64,000 nt of DNA, from NCBI GenBank assembly GCA_900299195.1, contig OMIX01000089.1:2892-66891 (forward strand), given 5' to 3'. The first letter of the stretch is position 1, and each line of letters opens with the position of its first letter. Source of the DNA: Deltaproteobacteria bacterium (lineage in GTDB: Bacteria; Bdellovibrionota; FAC87; UBA2466). Made by a program: the position numbers and the translations under genes. Under the pieces are notes generated by a model, which saw only the letters and a list, made by a program, of their open reading frames with translations, was not told the DNA's origin and did no database searches. Below, in pieces: positions 11,010-11,303 of the stretch.

Positions 11010-11246
11010 CTAGCAGATACGACGACAGCGGGTTCGGCATCGAACTCTAGCTACCGAGTAACATCGCACCCGTTTCACGCATCTAGAAACCGGCCGAACG
11101 CACCTTCGAGCACAAGGTCTAGCCCTAACAACGGGCGCACAGCCATGGCTTCCACATCTAGCTTCTGCCGGTGTAGGCGCTAATGTAGCTAAAGTTACTC
11201 CGACTAAAAACAACCCTTTAATCGTATTTTTACCAATACTTAACAC
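11010..11246 (-). CDS. Secreted hyper-cationic Cys/Arg-rich mini-protein (78 aa precursor, ~49 aa mature)
   Basis: GTG start 7 nt after AGAGGGG. Sec signal with an AEA cleavage motif. Mature part has 9 Cys, 15 Arg, 1 Lys and no acidic residues. No competing ORF on either strand. Confidence 0.6.
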   Translation of the reverse strand: MLSIGKNTIKGLFLVGVTLATLAPTPAEARCGSHGCAPVVRARPCARRCVRPVSRCVKRVRCYSVARVRCRTRCRRIC

Positions 11247-11278
11247 AGTTTTACCCCTCTATTAATTCCAACTCCTAG

Positions 11279-11303
11279 GTGAGAACTGATTGAAAGTTCT
11301 CAC
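11279..11303 (-). promoter_or_regulatory. Perfect 9-bp stem-loop in the leader of the mini-protein gene
   Basis: GTGAGAACT-7 nt-AGTTCTCAC, 33-57 nt upstream of the GTG start. No U-tract follows on the transcribed strand, so it is not a classical terminator. Confidence 0.4.

Follow-up and report, generated by a model that had tools for sequence, protein, structure and literature searches.

A conserved small gene with a predicted sigma-54 promoter encodes the precursor of a putatively secreted arginine- and cysteine-rich peptide in freshwater Bdellovibrionales

Contig OMIX01000089.1 of the Deltaproteobacteria bacterium assembly GCA_900299195.1 carries, on its minus strand, a small gene for the precursor of an exceptionally arginine- and cysteine-rich peptide that is predicted to be secreted. 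The stretch analysed, called the window throughout, comprises 64,000 nt of the forward strand (contig positions 2,892 to 66,891). Comparison with related loci indicates that the open reading frame (ORF) is a real protein-coding gene under purifying selection, and that it is confined to one freshwater clade of Bdellovibrionales with a GC content of about 42%. The non-coding DNA upstream of the gene holds a sigma-54 promoter pattern and two further boxes, a new finding that was overlooked in an earlier interpretation made from the letters of the window (the sequence-only reading). As for function, composition and lineage point tentatively to an outward role, in which a bacterium of predatory lineage would make the peptide on induction to act against other bacteria or to destabilise the envelope of its prey; we give this role somewhat less than an even chance, and still place it first.

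The sequence-only reading had described a 78-codon ORF on the minus strand, starting with GTG and preceded by AGAGGGG ending 7 nt upstream, and this description stands (Table 1). The window precursor consists of MLSIGKNTIKGLFLVGVTLATLAPTPAEA followed by RCGSHGC...CRRIC. A recount of the predicted mature 49-mer returned the reported 15 Arg, 9 Cys, single Lys and complete lack of Asp and Glu, with a calculated pI of 11.6; the density of Cys and Arg is unmatched among the ORFs of the window. The contrast between GC-rich coding DNA and AT-rich flanks is also real, with GC content of 0.52-0.59 over positions 11000-11199 and of about 0.35-0.45 in the flanks, and it now has an explanation. Within the mature part, GC content is 0.76 at second codon positions (GC2) and 0.41 at third positions (GC3), the latter similar to that of the adjoining genes. 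High GC2 combined with neighbour-like GC3 means that the spike follows from amino acid composition, that is, from codons of Arg, Cys, Ala, Pro and Gly, and it is no sign of foreign DNA or RNA structure. Horizontal transfer as its cause was rejected, as GC3 agrees with the genome. Between the start codon and the stop of the aldo/keto-reductase gene (11520) lie 273 nt of non-coding DNA, of which about 216 nt are upstream of a hairpin in the leader; the figure given earlier was about 215 nt.

Searches with the small protein itself were near-empty, and its relatives were reached via the downstream gene, which encodes a 571-aa secreted protein (the partner in what follows). Eighteen loci (identified by L numbers) were fetched from Bdellovibrionaceae and 'Deltaproteobacteria' metagenome-assembled genomes (MAGs) and from lake metagenomes, and represent about ten distinct small-ORF sequences. 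A small ORF of the same design lies directly upstream of the partner gene, on the same strand, in 18/18 of these close-clade loci. In all 10 distinct orthologues GGGG(G)TA precedes the start codon, ATG or GTG, by 6-9 nt. In the codon alignment, the proportion of differences at synonymous sites (pS) is 0.5-0.89, so that these sites are saturated, while that at non-synonymous sites (pN) is 0.05-0.44. For the unsaturated pairs, the ratio of non-synonymous to synonymous substitution (dN/dS) is 0.06 (L007/L010), 0.12 (L002/L011) and 0.20 (L008/L009). Differences among orthologues amount to 0.35, 0.25 and 0.61 at the first, second and third codon positions, respectively, and every indel is in frame. 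The homologous loci contain no frameshifts or stops, which, together with dN/dS of 0.06-0.2, indicates that the ORF is conserved as a protein.

The opposite view, which takes the GC-rich segment for an ORF arisen by chance or for a non-coding RNA with structure, draws on the failure of the source annotation, and of most gene callers in other contigs, to call the ORF, and on an empty word-indexed search of 5.8 billion proteins. It has to contend with low dN/dS at saturated synonymous sites, divergence that peaks at the third codon position, in-frame indels, a Shine-Dalgarno sequence and start codon that are kept, and the GC excess at codon position 2. Nor does any Rfam family match either strand, the other strand having been named earlier as a possible source of a structured RNA: with E up to 10 allowed, a covariance search covering both strands of 10500-12000 produced only two chance-level matches (E 2.4 and 7.7), neither of them within 11010-11340. 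Within the reach of comparative sequence analysis, the non-coding view is refuted, and we regard its probability as negligible. An exhaustive HMMER search over 1.84 billion representative proteins recovered three true relatives and one spurious repeat protein (P0017). The exact sequence of the small protein is missing from a collection of 15 billion proteins that does contain the 571-aa neighbour of the same contig, and the annotation of the source genome must therefore have skipped the small gene. Gene callers overlooked it in most related contigs as well, and labelled it 'hypothetical protein' where it was called.

The precursors carry the features of a classical cleavable Sec-type signal peptide. 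In all 10 orthologues the n-region has a charge of +2 or +3, the hydrophobic core spans 12-13 residues, a Pro stands at about -6, and AEA, AVA, AIA or ANA precedes a GSHG motif; no twin-arginine motif occurs in the orthologue signal peptides. The Sec-type signal features, first recognised in the window sequence by a Lys-containing n-region and an AEA motif, are in this way kept across the family. A core of 12-13 residues has the length typical of a signal peptide and is too short for a membrane helix. The cleavage site is followed by a short neutral spacer, (C)G(G)SHG, with G-S-H invariant in every copy, and the 8-10 residues past the site are neutral in all orthologues. A lipobox, defined as [LVI][ASTVI][GAS]C, was found only in L007 (IAGC), L008 (VASC) and L009 (VAAC); the pattern is unmet in the window (EARC) and in L003, L001, L002, L005, L010 and L011. 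The fit lies before the first Cys of the products encoded at 226-480 in L007, 914-1168 in L008 and 665-892 in L009, and these copies, as opposed to the others, might be lipoproteins.

The N-terminal segment could alternatively be an uncleaved membrane anchor, with the Arg/Cys tail remaining in the cytoplasm and binding nucleic acid or metal at the membrane. The positive-inside rule would keep a tail with a charge of +16 on the cytoplasmic side, and basic residues just after a signal peptide impair Sec export; an Arg occupies position +1 of the mature peptide in the window and in L003. However, the hydrophobic core of only 12-13 residues is followed by a conserved Pro and AxA, the neutral residues after the cleavage site create a local charge difference that favours an N-in/C-out orientation, and the C-terminal Cys and the many other Cys suit an oxidising compartment. 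We consider such an anchor highly improbable.

The mature part of the orthologues has 44-55 residues with 13-17 Arg and 8-11 Cys, never includes Asp or Glu, and has a pI of about 11.7; about one-third of it (~33%) is Arg and about one-fifth (~19%) is Cys. Fourteen mature positions are invariant, and 10 of the 14 are Arg or Cys: in window numbering, the invariant set comprises G32, S33, H34, V65, C45, C56, C70, C78 and six Arg, and three more Arg are conserved at 90% or above. The best-conserved part is the C-terminal V[TA]RxRC[RK]xxCRRxC, with Cys as the last residue of every copy; the internal Cys of this motif (C74 in the window) is lost in the subclade of L008 and L009. In the same subclade nearly all Val, Ala and Pro have been replaced by Ser and Gly, and Arg and Cys have been kept. 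Only four Cys are invariant; at the other Cys positions Tyr, Trp, Val, Arg or Pro also occur. Length varies in the N-terminal half of the mature part by short units, CGRSR in L008 (compared with L009) and CARR in L007 (compared with L010), and such gain and loss in a low-complexity region suggests repeat slippage. The selected trait, as judged from the alignment, appears to be charge and thiol content, with a better-defined C-terminal third. An odd Cys count had been taken to allow a free thiol or a disulfide-linked dimer; oddness is not conserved, as the orthologues have 8, 9, 10 or 11 Cys. Variation in both number and parity of Cys argues against a fixed disulfide scaffold of the defensin or knottin kind.

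The thiols might instead bind metals or metalloids, the peptide acting as a periplasmic buffer of Cu, Zn, Hg, Cd or As induced through a metal-sensing two-component system and sigma-54. Such a function would make use of the 8-11 Cys and of the invariant His in GSHG; a CxxxC spacing recurs, and the predicted mature N-terminus of L001 and L005 is G-S-H, an X-X-His arrangement of the amino-terminal Cu/Ni-binding (ATCUN) type. The ZraSR/ZraP system provides a precedent for a sigma-54-controlled periplasmic metal response. The ATCUN register varies, however, the orthologues having their His anywhere from position 3 to 6, and cations would be repelled by a peptide that is one-third Arg and carries a net charge of some +16. 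The CxC or CxxC clusters typical of metallothioneins are absent, the periplasm is oxidising, and the neighbourhood contains no metal-resistance gene. We consider metal binding very unlikely to be the function of the peptide.

The predicted sigma-54 promoter is distinguished both by its rarity and by its conservation. The pattern TGGTAY-N5-TTGCT has a single match in the 64-kb window against 0.16 expected, and the first 12 loci have exactly one coding-strand match each, 78-96 nt upstream of the start codon. A looser pattern, TGG[CT]A[CT]-N5-TTGC[AT], precedes the small ORF in 6/6 close-clade metagenome loci, and the element is found in none of 37 distant partner loci. In an alignment of the orthologous upstream regions (A6) the element is invariant, in surroundings that are barely alignable. 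Transcription is predicted to start near 11313-11315. The two boxes are located about 50-115 nt upstream of the -24 element; they share TAACAAnTTTT and are spaced by 32 nt, about three helical turns. Fourteen small-ORF loci contain the core of box 2, AACARNTTYYBGTC, as against 0/62 other loci fetched, and no further copies of the boxes occur above chance within the window. A sigma-54 element with two boxes upstream is the arrangement expected where an enhancer-binding protein drives the promoter. The boxes (11388-11437 on the minus strand, and the orthologous regions of A6) also hold repeated (C/T)TGTC and CCGTC elements. The TGTC repeats resemble the tandem sites of PilR-type activators, a resemblance for which no supporting paper was found.

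B. bacteriovorus encodes an RpoN-like factor, bd0843 (PMC3464611), and sigma-54 regulons have the cell exterior as their focus (PMC3162934). Downstream of the predicted transcription start, at a distance of 10-35 nt, lies the leader hairpin; its perfect 9-bp stem-loop at 11279-11303, reported earlier, was recovered as an inverted repeat. A hairpin is predicted in the 5' untranslated region (5'UTR) of 10/10 loci, with sequences that differ between loci and z-scores of -0.6 to -4.9 (mean -2.27) relative to dinucleotide shuffles. Such a hairpin would fit a 5' stabilising stem-loop. A generic scan for sigma-70 promoters and terminators found nothing around the small gene.

The partner has close relatives with 46-55% identity in Bdellovibrionaceae, 'Deltaproteobacteria' MAGs and lake metagenomes. 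The family as a whole is widespread, comprising 61 metagenome loci and about 44 protein clusters, with many members from high-GC (soil) organisms. It has no Pfam domain, and sequence searches of the PDB with partner profiles returned nothing. An AlphaFold model built from a 40-sequence alignment (pLDDT 87.4, pTM 0.87; a 13-sequence alignment gave an unusable model with pLDDT 51.7) has an N-terminal beta-sandwich of a binding type, similar to collagen-binding and PPC domains, and this beta-sandwich was the only part matched by a Foldseek search of the PDB. The C-terminal domain of the model bears a weak likeness to permuted hydrolases of the NlpC/P60 type, among them TseH, a type VI secretion system (T6SS) effector. 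The likeness agrees with an invariant His382 that precedes an invariant Cys476 opening a helix, as permuted papain-like and NlpC/P60 cysteine hydrolases (YiiX/C92, LRAT-like, TseH) have His before Cys and their Cys at a helix N-terminus. Neither Foldseek nor the sequence searches confirm it, and the partner can only tentatively be called cysteine-hydrolase-like. A guanidino-modifying (Arg-modifying) activity, considered for the partner on account of a GICNDSS motif, was dropped, as no fold match supports it.

The small gene and the partner gene are on the same strand, 67-158 nt apart, in 19/19 loci, and their adjacency, overlooked in the sequence-only reading, survives a switch of the upstream neighbour from aldo/keto reductase to SUI1. 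The partner gene probably has a sigma-70-type promoter of its own: TTGACn-N17-TAnnTT is shared in position by all 10 loci, and L013, where the small ORF is absent, has it too, before the distant partner homologue. The generic promoter scan missed this block because its -10 hexamer is weak. The hairpin between the two genes in the window is a possible leaky terminator, and in loci with longer spacers the hairpins after the small ORF are much stronger, a hairpin with a T-run in L005 and GC-rich stems in L007 and L010. The small gene and the sigma-54 element are found in none of the 37 distant metagenome partner loci, nor in L013-L015. The small gene with its predicted promoter is thus a clade-specific addition beside an older gene, a relationship in which functional coupling is possible and not required.

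A tighter relationship, with the peptide as a dedicated substrate, inhibitor, chaperone or activating cofactor of the 571-aa protein and the two genes forming one module, would account for the constant same-strand adjacency, even next to a changed upstream neighbour. The short spacer and weak hairpin of the window make read-through possible, and the partner has a conserved His/Cys pair and a weak fold likeness to cysteine hydrolases. Yet the partner family extends far beyond the loci that have the small gene, its promoter-like block is kept and persists in L013 where there is no small gene, and strong hairpins separate the genes in L005, L007 and L010. The remaining neighbourhood is equally syntenic, which makes linkage weak evidence. 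We judge a dedicated module to be quite unlikely.

Two further observations concern the partner locus. A distant homologue of the partner (39% identity) has, two genes away, a gene for an NtrC-type response regulator and sigma-54 activator (817-2157 in L013, 531-1871 in L014); that locus lacks both a sigma-54 motif and a small Cys/Arg ORF. In the window, the 3' ends of the partner gene and of a convergent GFO_IDH_MocA oxidoreductase gene (8252-9241, plus strand) overlap by 15 nt (9227-9241). An overlap at this place is also seen in relatives, with 12 nt in L003 and L004, and in the others the two genes overlap or abut.

An outward role of the peptide is favoured because the lineage is Bdellovibrio-like, because the gene is clade-restricted and predicted to be inducible, in the manner of an accessory weapon, and because the composition matches that of peptides binding lipopolysaccharide (LPS) or DNA. 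In such a role, the gene would remain silent until both boxes are occupied by an enhancer-binding protein that activates sigma-54 RNA polymerase, and the leader hairpin would stabilise the short mRNA. The precursor would be exported by Sec and cleaved after AxA, and its Cys would be oxidised in the periplasm to a loosely defined, partly intermolecular set of disulfides, with no fixed knot, since the number and parity of Cys vary. The polycation would then bind polyanionic envelope material (LPS, peptidoglycan-associated anions, nucleic acid) by charge, and may help the adjoining secreted cysteine-hydrolase-like protein to get to its substrate. By analogy, the peptide might have antimicrobial, membrane-permeabilising or LPS/DNA-binding activity.

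Several points weigh against an outward role. The Sec signal reaches only the periplasm in a diderm cell, and no route of export across the outer membrane is evident. For Sec it is unusual to export a peptide charged +16 against the membrane potential, and the Cys positions are not fixed, unlike those of most characterised disulfide-rich antimicrobial peptides. Neither a gene for an enhancer-binding protein with the GAFTGA motif nor rpoN was found in the window. Linkage of the small gene to the partner, which is apparently expressed from its own promoter, may reflect synteny and no more: the clade keeps the entire neighbourhood together, so that linkage is weak evidence, and distant partner loci do without the small gene. 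The outward role is derived from composition and lineage, and the predatory habit of these uncultured organisms is presumed.

The main rival is a role directed at the producer itself. Located in its own periplasm or outer membrane, the peptide would neutralise or bridge the anionic envelope, and disulfide cross-links would stiffen or protect the envelope under a stress that the enhancer-binding protein relays; E. coli Asr, ZraP, chlamydial cysteine-rich envelope proteins and keratin-associated high-sulfur proteins would be its functional analogues. A Sec signal alone predicts a periplasmic location, and the varying Cys content (8-11), with gain and loss of CGRSR and CARR units, suits intermolecular cross-linking better than a fixed toxin fold. 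Small periplasmic stress proteins that depend on sigma-54 do exist, ZraP being one. Sigma-54 regulons, moreover, centre on the cell exterior (PMC3162934). This rival is at odds with the lack of a lipobox or other anchor signal in most orthologues, with the lack of sequence relation to Asr, ZraP or OmcA, and with the restriction to one small clade, which would be unusual for a core envelope component. We see it as rather unlikely, with a substantial residual chance.

The outward role may be narrowed to that of an inducible 'protamine for export', whose evolution would follow composition and not fold and which would be delivered to prey or competitors, where it would breach or neutralise the anionic outer membrane or condense prey polyanions, and so open the way for the adjoining enzyme. 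In this specific form it is an unlikely proposition. If it held true, engineered antibacterials that combine a polycation with an enzyme would have a natural two-component counterpart in this gene pair. An active peptide would provide a new scaffold, 44-55 residues long and chemically accessible, for antibacterial action or LPS/DNA binding; it stems from an uncultured Bdellovibrio-like branch, and its composition (~33% Arg, ~19% Cys and no acidic residue) is not known to have been described for bacterial secreted peptides. The conserved neutral spacer after the cleavage site may represent a way to build a +16 protein for Sec export, and the upstream region a compact, well-defined predicted sigma-54 promoter/enhancer module for these organisms. 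The gene adds to the conserved small genes missed by standard annotation, and the neighbouring family of secreted proteins of ~570 aa is itself widespread and uncharacterised.

Table 1. Features of the small gene, its upstream region, the partner gene and the surrounding window
Feature	Position in the window	Strand	Details and basis
Small coding sequence (Arg/Cys-rich peptide precursor)	11010..11246	-	78 codons and TAG, GTG start; ORF list
Signal-peptide coding part, 29 aa	11160..11246	-	K6 and K10 in the n-region; h-region GLFLVGVTLATLA (13 aa); P-T-P; A-E-A
Predicted mature 49-residue peptide RCGSHGCAPVVRARPCARRCVRPVSRCVKRVRCYSVARVRCRTRCRRIC	11013..11159	-	composition, pI, alignment
Shine-Dalgarno sequence GAGGGG	11254..11259	-	7 nt before GTG
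5'UTR hairpin	11274..11307	-	9-bp perfect stem 11279-11287 / 11295-11303, plus 4 bp across a 1-nt bulge
Predicted sigma-54 promoter TGGTACATTCATTGCT	11324..11339	-	GG at -24, GC at -12, canonical spacing
Upstream box 2 TTGTTTAACAAGTTTTCGTTTG, candidate enhancer-binding-protein site	11388..11409	-	invariant GT..AACA..T..G..G in A6
Upstream box 1 GTAACAAATTTTGTCGC, palindrome	11421..11437	-	alignment and direct repeat D1
Weak hairpin (9 bp, 89%) with a T-rich run behind it	10959..10984	-	between the two genes; overlaps the promoter-like block of the partner
Sigma-70-like block TTGACC-17 nt-TAATTT	10968..10996	-	about 25 nt before the partner start
Partner gene, secreted 571-aa protein	9227..10942	-	signal peptide; N-terminal beta-sandwich; C-terminal domain with invariant His382 and Cys476
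ORFs without Pfam match	13651-14988, 15088-16038, 17040-19562, 19601-20941, 24058-25665, 37702-39144, 51803-54034, 60504-62711		

Elsewhere in the window, the aldo/keto-reductase gene (11520-12356, minus strand) overlaps a gene for an acetyl-CoA hydrolase/transferase (12347-13597, minus strand) by 10 nt, which suggests that the two probably form one operon. A gene for an Rce1-like/CPBP intramembrane protease (5876-6811, plus strand) lies a few kb from the small gene, a synteny shared by L005, L009, L010 and L011. Members of this protease family frequently have links to bacteriocin immunity, and we note the association as a lead only. Pfam searches at E up to 1e-5 and 1e-8 returned nothing for eight sizeable ORFs of the window, which encode 237-743 aa (Table 1).

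In keeping with the statement of the sequence-only reading that no named family fits, comparison of the small protein with Pfam, NCBIfam and PADLOC yielded only sub-threshold compositional matches, namely TIGR04117 (13.1 bits against a cut-off of 50) and the mussel Myticin prepro model (E 0.029, in 2/12 members), and a PDB sequence search with the mature peptide returned nothing. Nothing directly relevant was found in the literature on Bdellovibrio Arg/Cys-rich peptides and secreted protamine-like proteins. Resemblance to known systems is closest, in composition, to beta-hairpin and other Arg/Cys-rich cationic peptides of animals (tachyplesin, polyphemusin, gomesin, protegrin, theta-defensin) and to protamine P1, and, in organism and architecture, to bacterial cis-defensins. 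Like the small protein, the animal peptides are made as precursors with an N-terminal signal and are dominated by Arg and Cys, with Val, Ile and Tyr in between and no acidic residues; the C-terminal stretch RVRCYSVARVRCRTRCRRIC resembles their hairpins of alternating Arg, Cys and hydrophobic residues. Tachyplesins, protegrins and protamine bind LPS and DNA, and polyanions of this kind would be the expected shared targets. The small protein differs in being bacterial, two to three times longer (44-55 aa) and variable in Cys number, and it has no sequence homology to the animal peptides. Its conserved Cys spacing is C-x7-C-x3-C-x3-C, unlike the C-x3-C-x4-C-x3-C of tachyplesin.

Bacterial cis-defensins comprise five classes, including the xanthusin type of myxobacteria, and share a cysteine-stabilised alpha/beta core in which CxxxC is paired to CxC, with a GxC gamma-core and a fixed framework of three disulfides (PMC11561630). 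They are, like the small protein, small, disulfide-rich, equipped with a Sec signal and in many cases overlooked by annotation, and they occur in related 'delta-proteobacterial' predators, akin to the lineage considered here. The small protein has no CxC in any member, no conserved GxC and no fixed framework of six or eight Cys, and no defensin family of Pfam matches it. The N-terminal tails of the bacterial defensins are acidic or hydrophobic, as opposed to the roughly 33% Arg and lack of acidic residues in the small protein.

Mammalian protamine P1 (PF00260) parallels the small protein in its length of ~50 residues, its dominance by Arg and a Cys number that varies between species. Several of its Cys engage in intra- and intermolecular disulfides, and its composition is conserved over its exact sequence. 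Protamine is, however, nuclear, synthesised in the cytoplasm without a signal peptide and of unrelated origin, and its Arg are arranged in long runs, whereas those of the small protein alternate with Cys, Val and Pro. None of 12 members of the small-protein family matched PF00260 in Pfam, even at E up to 10.

In regulation, the nearest parallel is ZraP of the ZraSR system, likewise a small Sec-exported protein made in response to a signal from a promoter with sigma-54 and enhancer-binding-protein architecture. E. coli Asr shares the Sec export and the strongly basic, probably disordered character. Neither ZraP nor Asr has sequence similarity to the small protein, and neither is Cys-rich. The Cxxx-repeat targets of radical-SAM enzymes (TIGR04117) and ranthipeptides of the SCIFF type are also short and Cys-rich, with a four-residue Cys period, and L005 repeats C-x3-C five times. 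Their precursors have leader peptides and an adjoining radical-SAM maturase, as against the Sec-type signal of the small protein, and no radical-SAM domain was found among the neighbours of the small gene. Among these systems, the product is best described as a secreted cationic cysteine-rich peptide; its predicted control by sigma-54, an Arg content that is extreme and an evolution driven by composition make it unusual.

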